Source of the DNA: Escherichia coli O157:H7
GTDB lineage: Bacteria > Pseudomonadota > Gammaproteobacteria > Enterobacterales > Enterobacteriaceae
Direction: 5' to 3' (one strand)
DNA length: 64,000 bases
NCBI RefSeq assembly: GCF_013167455.1
Contig: NZ_CP038328.1
This document shows, piece by piece, positions 1,743 through 59,662 of the stretch (position 1 is its first letter; each line of letters opens with the position of its first letter). The notes below the pieces were generated by a model. The model was not told where the DNA came from. It saw only the letters and a list, made by a program, of their open reading frames with translations, and ran no database searches. The position numbers and the translations under genes were made by a program.

Positions 1743-2693
1743 TTATAGTTTGGCGGCAAGAAGATCTTCCAGTTTGCGTTGATCAACGGCGAACAGACGA
1801 ATGCCTTCAGACAGTTTTTCTACCGCCATCGCATCCTGATTGTGCTCCCAACGGAACTCCGCTTCGCTCATGGGAGCTGGGCGTGGGAACGTCTGAGAAG
1901 GTGGGATTAATTTACGTACCACTGGCGAAACTTTTTCCTGCAGCTCCTTCAGCAAATTCGGTGCGATAGTCAGTCGATCGCAGCCGGTTAAGGCGAGGAT
2001 TTGTTCGGTGCGACGGAAGCTCGCGCCCATCACAATGGTTTCATAGTGGTGTTGCTTATAGTAGTCGTAGATATTGCGCACCGATTTAACGCCCGGATCT
2101 TCTTCCACCACATATGGGTCCATCGGCTTGCGTGCCTGATACCAGTCATAAATACGCCCGACAAACGGCGAAATCAGAAAAACGCCCGCTTCTGCACAGG
2201 CCCGCGCCTGTGCAAAAGAAAACAGCAGCGTCAGGTTGCAGTTAATACCTTCTTTTTCCAGCTCTTCTGCCGCGCGAATTCCTTCCCAGGTCGAAGCCAG
2301 TTTGATCAGAATGCGTGATTTCTCAACGCCTTGTTGCTGATACAAGTCCACCAGATGGCGCGCCTTCTCAATACTCTTTTCTTTATCAAAAGAGAGGCGT
2401 GCATCAACTTCTGTTGACACGCGACCGGGTACGATTTTGAGGATTTCAGCACCGAAATTGACCGCCAGTTTGTCACACGCTGCGACCACCTGTTGTTCCT
2501 GGGTCTTGCCATTTTTTTTACCCCAGGCGATAGCATCGTCTATTAAATGCTCATATTGTGATAATCCGGCAGCCTTGAGTAACAGCGAAGGATTGGTGGT
2601 GGCATCCTGGGGATGATAATGGCGAATGGACTCAATATCGCCGCTGTCTGCCACGACAGTGGTGAACTGTTTGATGCCGTCTAACTCGTTCAT
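1743..2693 (-). CDS. talA: transaldolase A
   Basis: 316-aa [26 protein letters not shown]..., transaldolase family; 19 bp upstream of tktB on same strand. Confidence 0.93.
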
Positions 2694-2981
2694 AGGAAAT
2701 ACTCCTTGAAAAGTAAAGTGTTAGATGAGTGCGTTAATTCACACTTCTGAGAAATTTCGCTAAACGCATCAAAAAAGCATAGCAGACAGGCATGGTATTG
2801 CTGGATTAAGCAGGTAACATCAGTGTTATAGGATTATTACCAAAACATTATATTAATGGTGAGAGTTTGGACTTGCTCAAAGTCTGTAGACTCCGGCAAG
2901 GTAATAATGTGCGCCACGTTGTGGGCAGGGGCTGTTGCCCACACACTTTATTTGTGAACGTTACGTGAAAGGAACAACCAA

Positions 2982-5261
2982 ATGGATGACCAGTTAAAAC
3001 AAAGTGCACTTGATTTCCATGAATTTCCAGTTCCAGGGAAAATCCAGGTTTCTCCAACCAAGCCTCTGGCAACGCAGCGCGATCTGGCGCTGGCCTACTC
3101 ACCAGGCGTTGCCGCACCTTGTCTTGAAATCGAAAAAGACCCGTTAAAAGCCTACAAATATACCGCGCGCGGTAACCTGGTGGCGGTGATCTCTAACGGT
3201 ACGGCGGTGCTGGGGTTAGGCAACATTGGCGCGCTGGCAGGCAAACCGGTGATGGAAGGCAAGGGCGTTCTGTTTAAGAAATTCGCTGGGATTGATGTAT
3301 TTGACATTGAAGTTGATGAACTCGACCCGGACAAATTTATTGAAGTCGTCGCTGCGCTCGAACCGACCTTCGGCGGCATCAACCTCGAAGACATTAAAGC
3401 GCCAGAATGTTTCTATATTGAACAGAAACTGCGCGAGCGGATGAATATTCCGGTATTCCACGACGATCAGCACGGCACGGCAATTATCAGCACTGCCGCC
3501 ATCCTCAACGGCTTGCGCGTGGTGGAGAAAAACATCTCTGACGTGCGTATGGTGGTTTCCGGCGCGGGTGCTGCAGCAATCGCCTGTATGAACCTGCTGG
3601 TAGCGTTGGGTCTGCAAAAACATAACATCGTGGTTTGCGATTCAAAAGGCGTTATCTATCAGGGCCGTGAGCCAAACATGGCGGAAACCAAAGCCGCATA
3701 TGCGGTAGTGGATGACGGCAAACGTACCCTCGATGATGTGATTGAAGGCGCAGATATTTTCCTCGGCTGTTCCGGCCCGAAAGTGCTGACCCAGGAAATG
3801 GTGAAGAAAATGGCTCGAGCGCCAATGATCCTGGCGCTGGCGAACCCGGAACCGGAAATTCTGCCGCCGCTGGCGAAAGAAGTGCGTCCGGATGCCATCA
3901 TCTGTACCGGCCGTTCCGACTACCCGAACCAGGTGAACAACGTCCTTTGCTTCCCGTTCATCTTCCGTGGCGCGCTGGACGTTGGCGCAACCGCCATCAA
4001 CGAAGAGATGAAACTGGCGGCGGTACGCGCGATTGCAGAACTGGCCCATGCGGAACAGAGTGAAGTGGTGGCTTCAGCGTATGGCGATCAGGATCTGAGC
4101 TTTGGCCCTGAATACATCATTCCAAAACCGTTTGATCCGCGTCTGATAGTCAAGATTGCTCCTGCGGTCGCGAAAGCGGCGATGGAGTCGGGCGTGGCGA
4201 CGCGTCCGATTGCTGATTTCGACGTCTACATCGACAAGCTGACTGAGTTCGTTTACAAAACCAACCTGTTTATGAAGCCGATTTTCTCCCAGGCTCGCAA
4301 AGCGCCGAAGCGCGTAGTTCTGCCGGAAGGGGAAGAGGCGCGCGTTCTGCATGCCACTCAGGAACTGGTAACGCTGGGACTGGCGAAACCGATCCTTATC
4401 GGTCGTCCGAACGTGATCGAAATGCGCATTCAGAAACTGGGCTTGCAGATCAAAGCGGGCGTTGATTTTGAGATCGTCAATAACGAATCCGATCCGCGCT
4501 TTAAAGAGTACTGGACCGAATACTTCCAGATCATGAAGCGTCGCGGCGTCACTCAGGAACAGGCGCAGCGGGCGCTGATCAGTAACCCGACAGTGATCGG
4601 CGCGATCATGGTTCAGCGTGGCGAAGCCGATGCAATGATTTGCGGTACGGTGGGTGATTATCATGAACATTTTAGCGTGGTGAAAAATGTCTTTGGTTAT
4701 CGCGATGGCGTTCACACCGCAGGTGCAATGAACGCGCTGCTGCTGCCGAGTGGTAACACCTTTATTGCCGATACCTACGTCAATGACGAACCAGACGCAG
4801 AAGAGCTGGCGGAGATCACCTTGATGGCGGCAGAAACTGTCCGTCGTTTCGGTATTGAACCGCGCGTTGCTCTGTTGTCGCACTCCAACTTTGGTTCTTC
4901 TGACTGCCCGTCGTCGAGCAAAATGCGTCAGGCGCTGGAACTGGTCAGGGAACGTGCGCCAGAACTGATGATTGATGGTGAAATGCACGGCGATGCAGCG
5001 CTGGTGGAAGCGATTCGCAACGACCGTATGCCGGACAGCCCTTTGAAAGGTTCTGCCAATATTCTGGTGATGCCGAACATGGAAGCTGCCCGCATTAGTT
5101 ACAACTTACTGCGCGTTTCCAGCTCGGAAGGTGTGACTGTCGGTCCGGTGCTGATGGGCGTGGCGAAACCGGTTCACGTGTTAACGCCGATCGCATCGGT
5201 GCGTCGTATCGTCAACATGGTGGCGCTGGCCGTGGTTGAAGCGCAAACCCAACCGCTGTAA
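2982..5261 (+). CDS. maeB: NADP-dependent malic enzyme (malic enzyme domain fused to phosphotransacetylase-like domain)
   Basis: 759-aa [26 protein letters not shown]...; length and sequence match MaeB as recalled. Confidence 0.95.
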
Positions 5262-7057: not shown

Positions 7058-7785
7058 AAGATTTCATCACCGAAGCATGGCTAAGAGCGAACCATACGCT
7101 CAGCGAAGGCGCAGAGATCCATCTCCCTGCGGACAGTCGCCTGACGCCCTCTGCCCGGGAGTTGCTGGAAAGCCGCCATCTGCGCATCAAGTTTATTGAC
7201 GAGCAGGGCCGCCTGTTTGTTGACGATGAACAGCAGCAGCCGCAGCCCGTTCATGGGCTAACCAGTAGCGATGAACATCCGCAGGCGTGCTGCGAACTGT
7301 GCCGCCAGCCGGTGGCAAAAAAGCCGGATACGCTGACTCACCTGTCGGCGGAAAAAATGGTCGCCAAAAGCGATCCGCGTCTGGGTTTTCGCGCAGTTCT
7401 CGACAGCACCATTGCGCTGGCAGTGTGGCTGCAAATTGAACTGGCGGAACCGCTGGGCTGCCAGGCGATTGTCGGGCTTTCTGACGAAGATCTGCACCGG
7501 CTTTCTCATCAGCCGTTGCGTTATCTTGGTCACGATCATCTGGTGCCGGAAGCAAGCCACGGGCGCGATGCGGCGTTGCTGAATCTGCTACGCACCAAAG
7601 TGCGGGAAGCCGAAACCGTAGCGGCGCAGGTGTTTATCACCCGCAGTTTTGAAGTATTACGCCCGGACATCTTGCAGGCGCTGAACCGCCTTTCCAGCAC
7701 GGTCTACGTGATGATGATCCTGAGCGTAACGAAGCAGCCGCTAACGGTGAAGCAGATCCAACAACGACTGGGGGAAACGCAATGA
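7054..7785 (+). CDS. eutT: EutT, ethanolamine corrinoid adenosyltransferase
   Basis: 243-aa [17 protein letters not shown]..., Cys-rich HPQACCELC motif; ATGA overlap with eutQ stop. True start not verified. Confidence 0.85.
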
Positions 7786-8798
7786 TTATTGAACGTTGTT
7801 GTGAACTGGCGTTGCGAGCGCCCGCCAGAGTGGTTTTTCCGGATGCGTTAGATCAACGTGTGCTGAAAGCTGCGCAATATTTACATCAACAAGGTCTGGC
7901 AACGCCCATTCTGGTCGCCAATCCGTTTGAACTTCGTCAGTTTGCGCTCAGTCACGGCGTGGCGATGGACGGGCTACAGGTGATAGATCCGCATGGCAAC
8001 CTCGCAATGCGGGAAGAATTTGCTCATCGCTGGCTGGCCCGCGCGGGCGAAAAAACGCCGCCGGATGCGCTGGAAAAACTTACCGATCCGCTGATGTTCG
8101 CCGCCGCAATGGTCAGCGCCGGTAAAGCGGATGTCTGTATCGCGGGCAACCTCTCTTCCACGGCGAATGTGCTGCGTGCCGGATTACGCATTATCGGCTT
8201 GCAGCCAGGCTGTAAAACGCTCTCATCCATTTTCCTGATGCTGCCACAGTACAGCGGTCCGGCGTTGGGCTTTGCCGATTGCAGCGTGGTACCACAGCCG
8301 ACGGCGGCGCAGCTGGCGGATATCGCGCTTGCCAGCGCCGAAACCTGGCGCGCCATCACCGGAGAAGAGCCGCGCGTGGCGATGCTGTCGTTTTCCAGTA
8401 ACGGTAGCGCCCGTCACCCCTGCGTTGCCAATGTCCAGCAGGCGACAGAAATCGTCCGTGAGCGCGCACCAAAGCTGGTAGTCGATGGCGAGTTGCAGTT
8501 TGACGCCGCCTTCGTGCCGGAAGTGGCGGCGCAAAAAGCGCCTGCCAGCCCGCTACAGGGCAAGGCCAATGTGATGGTTTTTCCGTCGCTGGAAGCCGGA
8601 AATATTGGCTACAAAATCGCACAACGACTCGGCGGATATCGTGCCGTCGGGCCATTGATACAAGGACTTGCCGCGCCGATGCACGATCTCTCTCGTGGTT
8701 GTAGTGTGCAGGAAATTATCGAGCTGGCGCTGGTGGCAGCTGTGCCGCGTCAGACAGAAGTGAACCGCGAAAGCAGTTTACAAACACTGGTTGAATGA
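7782..8798 (+). CDS. eutD: EutD phosphotransacetylase
   Basis: 338-aa PTA-family ORF; start overlaps eutT stop (ATGA). Confidence 0.9.
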
Positions 8799-8836
8799 AC
8801 GGTCCCGTTCTGGACCCTGATAAAGAGGAAAGCACA

Positions 8837-9130
8837 ATGGAAGCATTAGGAATGATCGAAACCCGGGGCCTGGTTGCACTGATTGAGGCTTCTGACGCGA
8901 TGGTGAAAGCTGCGCGCGTCAAGCTGGTTGGTGTTAAGCAGATTGGCGGCGGCCTGTGTACTGCCATGGTTCGTGGTGATGTTGCAGCCTGTAAAGCGGC
9001 GACCGATGCCGGTGCCGCAGCGGCACAGCGTATCGGCGAGCTGGTATCTGTACACGTTATCCCGCGTCCGCACGGCGACCTGGAAGAAGTGTTCCCGATC
9101 GGCCTGAAAGGCGATAGCAGCAACCTGTAA
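8837..9130 (+). CDS. eutM: EutM, major BMC shell protein
   Basis: 97-aa product [26 protein letters not shown]... (canonical BMC-H domain); SD AAGAGGA upstream of ATG 8837. Confidence 0.92.
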
Positions 9131-9236
9131 TCACCCTGTGTGACGTCGATTCGGGCGTCACGCTCTCTCATTTTTCATTTTACCTTCCGCGGAGGGTAGG
9201 GGGAGCTTTTACCTGAAATACGCCACGGAGGCGGGT

Positions 9237-9524
9237 ATGAAACTGGCAGTCGTCACTGGACAAATTGTTTGTACCGTACGCCATCACGGACTGGCGCATG
9301 ACAAATTGCTGATGGTGGAAATGATTGATCCACATGGTAATCCTGACGGGCAATGTGCCGTCGCCATCGACAATATTGGCGCGGGAACCGGGGAGTGGGT
9401 GTTGCTGGTGAGTGGCAGTTCCGCCCGCCAGGCGCATAAAAGCGAAACGTCACCGGTCGATCTGTGCGTGATTGGCATCGTCGATGAGGTGGTGTCTGGC
9501 GGTCAGGTAATTTTCCACAAATAA
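9237..9524 (+). CDS. eutN: EutN, BMC vertex (pentamer) protein
   Basis: 95-aa ORF MKLAVVTGQIVCTVRHHGL..., EutN/CcmL family. Confidence 0.9.
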   Translation: MKLAVVTGQIVCTVRHHGLAHDKLLMVEMIDPHGNPDGQCAVAIDNIGAGTGEWVLLVSGSSARQAHKSETSPVDLCVIGIVDEVVSGGQVIFHK

Positions 9525-53782: not shown

Positions 53783-53858
<76 letters not shown>

Positions 53859-53897: not shown

Positions 53898-53973
<76 letters not shown>

Positions 53974-54180
53974 AATTTCCAACCCTCGCTGCAAAGCGGG
54001 GGTTTTTTGTCTCTGCTTTTTGCCGCTTTTGTAATACAGTCTACGTCCGGGTTAGTGCCGCCTGGTGAAAGCATCATTGGATGAAAAATCGGCAACAGGA
54101 TGGCCCCTGTTTGCTTCGCAATGCGAATAAACTTATTATTTGTGTGCCTGAAAACCCCGATCAGTGAGAGTAGTGTACTC

Positions 54181-56370
54181 ATGTTTGTGGAGCATAACCT
54201 GATAAAAAATATCAAGATATTCACACTAGCGTTTACGCTCACCGTGGTACTTATTCAGCTATCCCGTTTTATTTCGCCACTTGCCATTATCCATTCCAGT
54301 TATATCTTTCTGGCGTGGATGCCACTGTGCGTAATGCTGTCAATCTTGTTTATCTTTGGCTGGCGCGGTGTCGTTCCCGTTTTATGCGGGATGTTTTGCA
54401 CCAATCTGTGGAACTTTCATCTCTCTTTTTTACAGACTGCGGTCATGCTCGGTAGCCAGACGTTTGTCGTGTTGTGTGCCTGCGCAATATTACGCTGGCA
54501 GCTGGGGACGCGTTGGCGTTATGGATTGACCAGCCGATATGTCTGGCAACGTCTGTTCTGGCTTGGTTTGGTGACGCCGATCGGCATCAAATGCAGCATG
54601 TATCTTGTGGGGAGCTTCTTTGATTTCCCGCTAAAGATATCCACCTTTTTCGGCGATGCGGATGCCATTTTCACGGTCGTTGATTTGCTAAGCCTTTTCA
54701 CCGCTGTGCTGATTTACAACATGCTTTTCTACTATCTCACTCGCATGATTGTAAGTCCCCACTTTGCGCAGATATTGTGGCGCAGGGATATCGCTCCGTC
54801 GTTGGGCAAAGAGAAACGCGCATTTACCTTAAGCTGGCTGGCAGCGTTAAGCGTGCTGCTACTTCTGTTGTGCACACCTTATGAAAACGACTTTATTGCC
54901 GGTTACCTGGTACCCGTTTTCTTCATCATCTTTACCCTCGGGGTCGGTAAGCTTCGCTATCCGTTTTTAAATCTCACTTGGGCTGTTTCAACGCTTTGCC
55001 TGCTGAATTACAACCAGAACTTTTTGCAAGGGGTGGAAACCGAATATTCGCTGGCATTTATTCTCGCGGTGCTGATTTCCTTTAGCGTTTGCCTGCTCTA
55101 TATGGTGCGCATTTATCATCGCAGTGAATGGCTTAATCGCCGCTGGCATTTGCAGGCGCTGACCGATCCGTTAACGCTCCTGCCCAACTTTCGTGCGTTG
55201 GAACAAGCGCCGGAGCAAGAGGCGGGCAAGAGTTTTTGCTGCCTGCGCATTGATAATCTTGAGTTTATGAGTCGTCATTACGGGTTGATGATGCGTGTTC
55301 ACTGTATCCGATCAATTTACCGTACGCTGCTGCCATTGATGCAGGAAAACGAAAAGTTGTATCAATTGCCGGGTAGTGAACTGCTGTTAGTGCTGAGCGG
55401 GCCTGAAACGGAAGGGCGACTCCAGCATATGGTTAACATCCTGAATAGTCGGCAAATTCACTGGAACAATACCGGGCTGGATATGGGCTATGGTGCTGCC
55501 TGGGGGCGTTTTGATGGAAATCAGGAAACCCTGCAACCCTTGTTGGGGCAGTTAAGCTGGCTGGCGGAGCAATCCTGCGCACATCATCATGTGCTGGCGC
55601 TGGATAGCCGAGAGGAGATGGTTTCCGGGCAGACCACTAAACAGGTGCTATTGCTGAATACCATTCGCACGGCGTTAGATCAGGGTGATTTGCTGCTCTA
55701 CGCCCAGCCAATTCGCAACAAAGAGGGTGAAGGTTATGATGAGGTCCTCGCGCGACTGAAATATGACGGCGGCATTATGACCCCGGATAAGTTTCTGCCC
55801 CTTATTGCTCAGTTTAACCTTAGCGCGCGTTTTGATTTGCAAGTGCTGGAATCCTTGTTGAAGTGGCTGGCAACACACCCTTGCGACAAAAAAGGCCCGC
55901 GCTTTTCAGTTAATTTAATGCCGCTCACGCTGCTGCAAAAGAATATTGCCGGGCGGATTATTCGTCTATTTAAGCGTTATCACATCTCCCCGCAGGCGGT
56001 CATTCTTGAGATCACCGAGGAGCAGGCGTTTTCTAACGCAGAAAGCAGCATGTACAACATCGAGCAGCTGCATAAGTTTGGTTTCCGGATTGCGATTGAT
56101 GACTTTGGCACCGGCTATGCCAACTACGAACGGTTAAAGCGTTTGCAGGCTGATATCATCAAAATTGATGGCGTCTTTGTGAAAGATATTGTCACGAATA
56201 CGCTGGATGCGATGATTGTGAGATCAATTACCGATCTGGCGAAAGCGAAGTCATTGAGTGTGGTCGCGGAGTTTGTCGAGACGCAACAGCAACAGGCGCT
56301 ATTGCATAAGCTCGGGGTGCAATATCTGCAAGGGTATTTGATTGGTCGCCCGCAGCCATTAGCTGATTAA
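54181..56370 (+). CDS. pdeA: membrane-anchored GGDEF-EAL protein, c-di-GMP phosphodiesterase PdeA (YfeA)
   Basis: ORF track 54100..56370; 729-aa product from ATG 54181 with N-terminal multi-TM (MASE-like) region and C-terminal EAL-type sequence. Confidence 0.85.
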   Translation: MFVEHNLIKNIKIFTLAFTLTVVLIQLSRFISPLAIIHSSYIFLAWMPLCVMLSILFIFGWRGVVPVLCGMFCTNLWNFHLSFLQTAVMLGSQTFVVLCACAILRWQLGTRWRYGLTSRYVWQRLFWLGLVTPIGIKCSMYLVGSFFDFPLKISTFFGDADAIFTVVDLLSLFTAVLIYNMLFYYLTRMIVSPHFAQILWRRDIAPSLGKEKRAFTLSWLAALSVLLLLLCTPYENDFIAGYLVPVFFIIFTLGVGKLRYPFLNLTWAVSTLCLLNYNQNFLQGVETEYSLAFILAVLISFSVCLLYMVRIYHRSEWLNRRWHLQALTDPLTLLPNFRALEQAPEQEAGKSFCCLRIDNLEFMSRHYGLMMRVHCIRSIYRTLLPLMQENEKLYQLPGSELLLVLSGPETEGRLQHMVNILNSRQIHWNNTGLDMGYGAAWGRFDGNQETLQPLLGQLSWLAEQSCAHHHVLALDSREEMVSGQTTKQVLLLNTIRTALDQGDLLLYAQPIRNKEGEGYDEVLARLKYDGGIMTPDKFLPLIAQFNLSARFDLQVLESLLKWLATHPCDKKGPRFSVNLMPLTLLQKNIAGRIIRLFKRYHISPQAVILEITEEQAFSNAESSMYNIEQLHKFGFRIAIDDFGTGYANYERLKRLQADIIKIDGVFVKDIVTNTLDAMIVRSITDLAKAKSLSVVAEFVETQQQQALLHKLGVQYLQGYLIGRPQPLAD

Positions 56371-56377
56371 CAGGCGT

Positions 56378-56408
56378 AAAAAAGCCGGGGAATTATCCCC
56401 GGCTTTTT
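56378..56408. terminator. bidirectional rho-independent terminator between convergent pdeA and nupC
   Basis: AAAAAAGCCGGGG-AATTAT-CCCCGGCTTTTTT perfect hairpin flanked by A- and T-runs. Confidence 0.8.
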
Positions 56409-56419
56409 TATGTATGGTC

Positions 56420-57622
56420 TTACAGCACCAGTGCTGCGATTGACGCAGACAGCACACTCACCAGGGTAGAGCCGTAAACCAGCTTCAGACCGAAGCGAGA
56501 AACCACGTTACCTTGCTCTTCATTCAGGCCTTTAACTGCACCTGCGATAATCCCGATTGAAGAGAAGTTAGCGAAGGAAACCAGGAACACAGAGATGATG
56601 CCTTCAGCACGCGGAGAGAGTGTAGAGGCAATTTTCTGAAGATCCATCATCGCAACGAACTCGTTGGAAACCAGTTTGGTCGCCATGATACTGCCCACTT
56701 GCAGTGCTTCACTGGAAGGAACACCCATCACCCATGCAATCGGATAGAAGATGTAGCCCAGGATGCCCTGGAAGGAGATGCTGTAGCCAATCCAGCCAGT
56801 CACGGTAGCAAACAGTGCGTTCAGCGCGGCGATCAGGGCGATAAAGCCAATCAGCATTGCGGCAACGATAATGGCAACTTTGAAACCTGCCAGAATGTAT
56901 TCACCCAGCATTTCGAAGAAGCTCTGACCTTCGTGCAGGTTGGACATCTGAATGTTTTCTTCACAGGCATCAACACGGTAAGGGTTGATCAGCGACAGCA
57001 CGATAAAGGTGCTGAACATGTTCAGTACCAGCGCTGCAACGACGTATTTTGGTTCCAGCATGGTCATGTATGCACCAACGATGGACATAGAAACGGTGGA
57101 CATCGCCGTTGCTGCCATGGTGTACATACGGTTACGGGAGATTTTGCCAAGGATATCTTTATAGGCAATAAAGTTTTCAGACTGACCCAGAATCAGGGAG
57201 CTGACGGCGTTAAAGGATTCCAGTTTGCCCATGCCGTTGACTTTGGAGAGCAGGAAACCAATTGCGCGGATAATCACCGGCAACACGCGAATGTGCTGGA
57301 GAATACCGATCAGTGCAGAGATAAAGACGATTGGGCACAGCACTTTCAGGAAGAAGAATGCCAGGCCTTGATCATTCATGCTACCAAAGACGAAGTTAGT
57401 CCCTTCGTTGGCAAATCCGAGCAGTTTTTCGAACATTTCGGAGAAGCCTTTCACGAAGCCTAAACCAACGTCGGAGTTCAGGAAGAACCACGCCAGTAAC
57501 ACTTCGATAACAAGCAGTTGAATAACATAACGGATACGAATTTTTTTGCGGTCGCTGCTTACCAGCAGTGCGAGGATCGCAACAACGGCAAGTGCCAGTA
57601 CAAAATGAAGGACGCGGTCCAT
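56420..57622 (-). CDS. nupC: nucleoside:H+ symporter
   Basis: ORF track 56420..57661 (GTG); 400-aa product from ATG 57622 ([21 protein letters not shown]...). Confidence 0.92.
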
Positions 57623-59196: not shown

Positions 59197-59227
59197 TTGA
59201 ATGAGCGTCGCATCTGGCACTATTGGC

Positions 59228-59312
59228 GATGCGGCGTAAACGCCTTATCCGCCCTACGCGTTAAAGAGCCGGTTTGTAGGCCTGATAAGACGCACTAGCG
59301 TCGCATCAGGCC
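59228..59312. repeat. REP (repetitive extragenic palindromic) elements, two units, between mntH and ypeC
   Basis: GATGCGGCGTAAACGCCTTATCCGCCCTAC and GTAGGCCTGATAAGACGCACTAGCGTCGCATCAGGCC, typical REP palindromes. Confidence 0.8.
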
Positions 59313-59335
59313 TTGTGCTCCATTGGCGAATGTGT

Positions 59336-59662
59336 TTAATGGCGGTGTCCATGTCCGCGGCCTTTTCCGCGATGATCGTCACGATCGCGCCAGCCTTCAC
59401 GATAGCCACGCTCATATGCTTTACGCTTATCCCAGCCACGATGGTAGCCATTATCATGACGCCACCAGCGGTTTTTACGCCATTCATAATTGCGATGCCA
59501 GTAGTCACGGTCGCGCCAGTGACCACCGTCCCAGTAATTACCGTAATGATCGCGATCGCCAATTTGTAATTTGATTGATGGCAGTAGGGTGATTTCGCCT
59601 GCGTTTGCTGCAAGCGGGGTAAATGCCATCAGGGCGGCCGCCAGAAACAGTGACCTGAACAT
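59336..59662 (-). CDS. ypeC: periplasmic DUF2502-family protein YpeC (signal peptide; W/R/H/D-rich repeats; His-rich C-terminus)
   Basis: 108-aa [24 protein letters not shown]... ending [12 protein letters not shown]. Confidence 0.8.

Follow-up and report, generated by a model that had tools for sequence, protein, structure and literature searches.

The pdeA/nupC Locus

In a 64-kb stretch of Escherichia coli O157:H7 DNA (the window, by which the whole of this stretch is meant), two genes converge on a short spacer: pdeA, which encodes a c-di-GMP phosphodiesterase, and nupC, which encodes a nucleoside:H+ symporter. Both genes carry these names in the RefSeq annotation of identical O157:H7 genomes; the 1-kb region around the spacer is 100% identical to that of O157:H7 strains PV15-279 and M1300706002, and it is found at a median of one place per genome in complete E. 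coli genomes. The locus is laid out as follows:

54100–56370, + strand: pdeA (yfeA), c-di-GMP phosphodiesterase gene; longest open reading frame, annotated as pdeA in identical O157:H7 genomes and in K-12
56368–56370, + strand: stop codon of pdeA (TAA)
56371–56419: spacer between the convergent stop codons of pdeA and nupC, exactly 49 bp
56420–56422, − strand: stop codon of nupC (reverse complement TTA)
56420–57622, − strand: nupC, nucleoside:H+ symporter gene; 1203 nt, as in the K-12 annotation

At its annotated K-12 length (2190 nt), pdeA would start at about 54181; a GTG further upstream takes the mechanically delimited nupC reading frame out to 57661. A tandem pair of tRNA genes precedes pdeA (53783–53855 and 53898–53970, + strand) and corresponds to alaX and alaW of K-12. 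Downstream of mntH (59204–59362, − strand), two sub-threshold Rfam naRNA4/CssrE matches, scoring 43.8 and 37.4 bits against a gathering score of 59.5, are probably REP-type palindromes.

A Predicted Hairpin at the Ends of Both Genes

The spacer holds a perfect inverted repeat of 13 + 13 nt with a 6-nt central spacer (56378–56409), composed of A6, GCCGGGG, AATTAT, CCCCGGC and T6. Its elements, read from the sequence, are the following:

56378–56383: A6 tract, the U-tract 3′ of the hairpin on the minus-strand (nupC) transcript
56384–56403: hairpin core GCCGGGG-AATTAT-CCCCGGC, 8 pairs and a 4-nt loop on either strand
56384–56390: left stem, GCCGGGG
56391–56396: loop, AATTAT
56397–56403: right stem, CCCCGGC
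56404–56409: T6 tract, the U-tract of the plus-strand (pdeA) transcript

Both U-tracts (T6 and A6) directly abut the stem, and the distance from stop codon to hairpin is 7 nt for pdeA and 10 nt for nupC. Folded as RNA, the spacer reaches −30.8 kcal/mol on the plus strand (z = −7.56) and −25.0 kcal/mol on the minus strand (z = −7.46), with none of 200 dinucleotide shuffles as good in either case; the 20-nt GC core by itself folds at −16.1 (+) and −17.0 (−) kcal/mol. A simple terminator scan of the spacer returned a partial minus-strand stem only, without enrichment over shuffles. The initial annotation had described a 49-bp convergent interval with a perfect hairpin, which is what the coordinates and the 13-nt complementary arms give, and had taken it for a bidirectional terminator, a reading that agrees with the sequence hallmarks and with fold z-scores of about −7.5 on both strands. 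A promoter-like arrangement across the hairpin, TTAACA-18-AATTAT, was set aside, as it occurs at chance level (3 found against 1.3 expected).

Judged by its sequence, the spacer appears to possess all the tested features of a two-way intrinsic (Rho-independent) terminator. Either transcript would fold into the same GC-rich hairpin of 8 pairs, with six U immediately after it; RNA polymerase would then pause and the transcript would be released past its stop codon, at 7 nt for pdeA and at 10 nt for nupC. We infer that termination at this hairpin is likely to take place in vivo. The arrangement is that of known bidirectional intrinsic terminators between convergent bacterial genes, in which a GC-rich perfect palindrome has an A-tract on one side and a T-tract on the other, each transcript thus ending in a hairpin and a U-run, and the structure is kept with compensatory changes; no unusual difference from these was found in the sequence.

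Another mechanism has been proposed for bidirectional terminators between convergent E. coli genes, whereby the hairpin pauses the converging RNA polymerases and head-on and trailing collisions bring about release (Ju et al. 2019, as summarised in bioRxiv 10.1101/2022.10.23.513370). Such a collision-type terminator would suit two convergent genes with one hairpin common to both. However, the same preprint describes this class as unlike intrinsic terminators, which the pdeA/nupC site resembles on both strands, and a strong GC stem with an uninterrupted U6 on both strands should be enough for classical termination. We consider it unlikely that collisions explain this site; the two mechanisms are not mutually exclusive, and collisions would at most be an addition to classical termination.

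Conservation of the Hairpin among Enterobacteria

A degenerate pattern from the nupC C-terminus, run against one genome per species, yielded 120 loci, of which 39 are enterobacterial nupC orthologues. In most of these 39, pdeA converges on nupC across a spacer of about 40–70 nt that carries an A-tract, a GC stem and a T-tract. The stem reads ACCGGGG/CCCCGGT in Salmonella, Leclercia and Kosakonia, CCGGGAGC/GCTCCCGG in Enterobacter and Lelliottia, CGGGACG/CGTCCCG in Pseudocitrobacter, GGGCCTGTAAC/GTTACAGGCCC in Kluyvera and GGAAAAGC/GCTTTTCC in Mangrovibacter. A GC hairpin and a T-tract follow the stop codon of nupC in 36 enterobacterial orthologues, with a stem sequence that varies by genus. 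On 36 of these loci, RNAalifold returned one 8-pair hairpin with compensatory changes at 8 of the 8 pairs, a covariation that is partly circular because extraction had already selected for the best local hairpin downstream of nupC.

These orthologues also bear on the reading of the hairpin as a dispersed repeat (REP/BIME-like) or an uncharacterised small RNA, with no dedicated terminator at the site. Such a reading would fit a palindromic and intergenic element, and sub-threshold matches to Rfam ar35 overlap the hairpin on both strands (27 and 22 bits against a gathering score of 45); we treated these as generic terminator resemblance. Against it, no family reached its threshold in the Rfam scan, the motif occurs once in the 64-kb window, the 1-kb region has its median of one place per genome, and the orthologues retain structure rather than sequence, which is terminator-like behaviour. 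Membership of a REP/BIME or other dispersed-repeat family was thus not found by motif count in the 64-kb window, by Rfam thresholds or by genome copy number, and we hold this reading to be extremely improbable.

The comparison of tract lengths among orthologues is a less circular test than the covariation; here, the A-tract is the U-tract of the pdeA transcript, and run lengths were scored by visual inspection of the printed sequences. An A-tract of at least 4 nt is present at 19 of the 22 loci with a directly convergent pdeA and at 5 of the 14 without one. The median lengths are 5 and 3, respectively (one-sided Mann–Whitney p = 0.008, phylogeny ignored), while the T-tract after nupC has a median of 7 in both groups. 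A longer A-tract at loci with a convergent pdeA speaks for intrinsic termination in both directions.

The same comparison weighs on a reading in which the hairpin serves nupC only, the A-tract being incidental and pdeA being ended otherwise, for example by Rho. Long T-tracts do follow nupC in nearly all genera, whichever gene lies next to it, and the natural alleles of the site described below weaken the pdeA-direction stem only (an A–C mismatch in the plus-strand RNA, a G–U pair in the minus-strand RNA). However, the A-tract is significantly longer with a directly convergent pdeA, and the window has two six-long tracts and a perfect stem; that the hairpin is dedicated to nupC alone is therefore very unlikely. 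Fold, conservation and tract lengths, all read from sequence, together support classical hairpin and U-tract termination as the probable mode in both directions.

Insertion of IS186 in K-12

In MG1655 (NC_000913.3), an IS186 copy, IS186C (annotated length 1345 bp, 2514273–2515617, with insL3), lies between nupC (b2393) and pdeA (b2395), in the order mntH, nupC, IS186C, pdeA, alaX, alaW. The element sits inside the hairpin, in the loop and upper stem, with GGGAATTATCCC on either side, and the window thus represents its unoccupied target site. The junctions read ...CCGGGGAATTATCCC|IS186|GGGAATTATCCCCGGC... or, in window orientation, ...AAAAAAACCGGGGAATTATCCC|ATAAGCGC...IS186...GCGCTTAT|GGGAATTATCCCCGGCTTTTTT... 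GGGAATTATCCC looks like the target-site duplication; the GGG and CCC that adjoin IS186 could be element ends instead, and the sequence does not decide between the two origins because all three K-12 copies carry both.

An insertion at this position would split the hairpin, and both terminators would be lost. In K-12, the 75-nt stretches past each stop codon show no folding beyond that of shuffles (z = −0.75 and −1.25), and neither junction gave a terminator-like site in the scan; as predicted from sequence, the IS186 insertion in K-12 destroys both terminators. Since the site is split in K-12, 3′-end datasets from this strain are uninformative on the native one. K-12, the reference for transcript-end maps, would lack the native nupC and pdeA terminators, and its 3′-end and read-through data for these genes would not be transferable to other strains.

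Target Motifs of IS186 and IS4

IS186 targets 5′-GGGG(N6/N7)CCCC-3′ in either orientation, a motif that is rare in K-12 (19 N6 and 35 N7 sites) and enriched in non-coding DNA, and its hot spots include the lon promoter, fimA and menC (Lee et al. 2016, PMC5009759). In the 64-kb window, GGGG-N6-CCCC occurs once, against a chance expectation of 1.4, and this single occurrence lies in the pdeA/nupC hairpin. In the K-12 background used by Lee et al., the pdeA/nupC site already carries the element. The original IS186 target consensus is reportedly that of SaiSree et al. 2001. All three K-12 copies share the flank form GGGG-N6-CCC|IS|GGG-N6-CCCC. The sequences that relate the hairpin to its insertions are:

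56387–56400: GGGG-N6-CCCC, unoccupied IS186 target motif GGGGAATTATCCCC, with loop AATTAT
56381–56406: AAA-N20-TTT pattern of IS4 sites (AAA 56381–56383, N20 56384–56403, TTT 56404–56406)
56388–56399: GGGAATTATCCC, the 12 bp that flank IS186 (K-12, strain 300709) and IS4 (AR_0013)

The hairpin is an IS186 target, with the exact motif, actual occupation and duplicated flanks. It resembles the known IS186 hot spots in its exact GGGG-N6-CCCC, in its use in both orientations and in flanks like those of the other two K-12 copies; it differs from them in that the motif forms the stem top of a presumed shared terminator, such that one insertion would remove the termination of two genes, and in that the site is used by IS4 too.

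IS4 favours a symmetric AAA-N20-TTT consensus and makes an 11–13 bp duplication, as described in the literature of the 1980s. The K-12 IS4 site, the dgcM site of NCTC86 and the pdeA/nupC site all have AAA-N20-TTT, and the duplication, 12 bp long (13 bp in E686), lies at the centre of it. The pdeA/nupC site thus appears to fit the IS4 pattern, a match that rests on the three sites examined and on this consensus; its likeness to IS4 target specificity lies in the AAA-(20 bp)-TTT arrangement and in the centred duplication of 12 or 13 bp. With its A-tract, 20-bp palindrome and T-tract, the putative terminator matches the site patterns of both elements. At the DNA level, the palindrome would be a preferred target of two IS4-family elements, IS186 and IS4, and the two patterns, GGGG-N6-CCCC and AAA-N20-TTT, may be the cause of the recurrent insertions.

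Two further sets of sites were observed. In K-12, IS186A and IS186B lie just 3′ of the toxin genes hokC and hokE, in short GC palindromes of the form GCGGGG-N6-CCCCGC, and all three K-12 copies thus occupy stem-loop-forming sites at gene 3′ ends. In NCTC86, IS4 interrupts dgcM (1801–3260 of the locus) at the site AAAAAACAA-GGTTTTTATGCG-CGCTTTTTT, which is symmetric in its A-tract and T-tract but coding.

Occupancy of the Site across E. coli

The state of the site was counted among 5,426 complete E. coli genomes:

Uninterrupted site: 4,460 of 5,426 genomes (about 82%)
IS186, K-12 orientation: 474 genomes (471 under a stricter filter)
IS186, opposite orientation: 466 genomes (464 under a stricter filter)
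IS4, first orientation: 9 genomes
IS4, second orientation: 6 genomes
Otherwise altered site: about 11 genomes

IS186 in either orientation accounts for about 17% of the complete genomes, and the hairpin is split by an IS in K-12 and in roughly one sixth of them, in a collection that is rich in K-12 laboratory derivatives and whose percentages are not natural or population frequencies. The K-12-orientation class consists mostly of laboratory K-12 derivatives, together with larger natural isolates; the opposite-orientation class is made up of natural isolates of several lineages, including HS, O104:H4 HUSEC2011, O111:H8, ETEC and carbapenemase-bearing clinical strains. The IS186 junctions are identical in both classes; the transposase gene is co-directional with nupC in K-12 and with pdeA in the opposite orientation. 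IS4 (1426 bp) occupies this very position too; its flanking duplication is 12 bp long in AR_0013 (GGGAATTATCCC) and 13 bp long in E686 (GGGAATTATCCCC). With four insertion classes (IS186 and IS4, each in two orientations), the site has been struck at least four times.

The empty site is probably the ancestral state and the K-12 arrangement the derived one. The initial annotation had placed an IS186 (insL) copy at this position in K-12 and none in the window, as is confirmed by the annotated IS186C/insL3 of MG1655; it had named a K-12 without IS186 here as the finding that would speak against it, and NC_000913.3 carries the element. It had also proposed the vacant site as a strain marker. The site is indeed empty in the window, but the marker is a weak one, since about 82% of the complete E. 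coli genomes in this K-12-rich collection share that state; an empty site is the norm and does not discriminate O157:H7 from most E. coli. The left end of IS186 has zero copies in at least one O157:H7 chromosome, that of ECP19-198, and the median genome also has zero, which is sufficient to explain why the site is empty here. One of the otherwise altered genomes, ST2747 (NZ_CP007394.1, 4400–4730 of the locus), has a rare deletion allele that lacks nupC and the final ~100 nt of pdeA; the shortened pdeA continues into unrelated sequence, with mntH about 240 nt further on.

Natural Alleles of the Intact Site

Several alleles of the uninterrupted hairpin circulate in E. coli. The perfect-stem allele is found in O157, GABEEC10 and MS20645. 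Three others differ in the left arm, and each corresponds to the background of an insertion: A7CCGGGG in AW1.7 is the allele of the K-12 background, A6CCGGGG in IAI39 that of AR_0013, and A8CCGGGG in CFSAN061763 that of E686. In JL05, the allele GCCGGG-AATGAT-CCCCGGC has lost the IS186 motif. The left-arm variants that stand beside insertions could be taken for decay after the insertion; this is ruled out by the presence of the same alleles in the intact sites of AW1.7, IAI39 and CFSAN061763, and the left-arm differences are thus older than the insertions.

With G changed to A in the left arm, the stem loses one pair in the pdeA direction (−13.8 kcal/mol) and has a G–U pair in the nupC direction (−15.6 kcal/mol). 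Since several natural alleles have a pdeA-direction stem weakened by this loss of a pair, a perfect stem is not strictly required. The polymorphism lies at the boundary between the A-run and the G of the left arm (A6G, A7, A6 and A8; 56378–56384 of the window and homologous positions), where it weakens the pdeA-direction stem only, and it looks like homopolymer slippage.

Related Sites in Other Species

In Escherichia albertii NBRC 107761, an element of about 1.55 kb with IS4-like ends interrupts the orthologous hairpin (7706–9325 of the locus). The ends, TGATGCCAGTCAGTTAAGC... and ...TTAACTGATCGGCATTA, match with 83% identity over 142 bp at one end and with 28 identical bases at the other; no intact transposase reading frame was found in the element, and its flanking copies have diverged (GAGATTCCCC vs. 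GAGAATATTCCCC). Its sequence suggests an ancient insertion at this site that has since decayed. In the soil metagenome-assembled genome Proteobacteria CTSoil_132, which is Enterobacter- or Kosakonia-like, an IS4-like end with 87% identity over 87 bp adjoins GGGGAATTCCC / AAAAAACCGGGGAATTCCC directly after nupC, and the contig breaks at this end (contig start, 1–140); this looks like the same putative terminator struck in another genus.

The pdeA/nupC spacer is, on the sequence evidence assembled here, very probably a canonical two-way intrinsic terminator that also serves as a preferred target of IS186 and IS4 and is unoccupied in the window. A more general proposal is possible but doubtful: the shape of a two-way terminator may itself guide IS4 and IS186 to terminators shared by convergent genes, where landing would be of low cost, and pdeA/nupC would then be a hot spot that several ISs strike repeatedly, in several species. 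If so, read-through from nupC or pdeA into the transposase gene would be a side effect.

Shared terminators of this textbook kind, the annotated IS186C copy and the published IS186 motif are already known; recurrent use by two ISs and in more than one species may be the only, mildly new point. In a literature search of incomplete coverage, no description of recurrent use of the nupC/pdeA site by two ISs was found, and the search on IS186 with nupC gave no match. The locus offers a natural example of two related transposases repeatedly striking one predicted terminator hairpin; it could find use in typing within phylogroups A and B1 and as a model for testing how targets are recognised.

In some other enterobacterial genomes, namely Enterobacter sp. 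Ag1, Enterobacter sp. R1 and Cedecea sulfonylureivorans, pdeA is still found downstream of nupC, displaced by 0.2–1.8 kb of extra sequence; in C. sulfonylureivorans, the sequence after nupC has a REP-like appearance.
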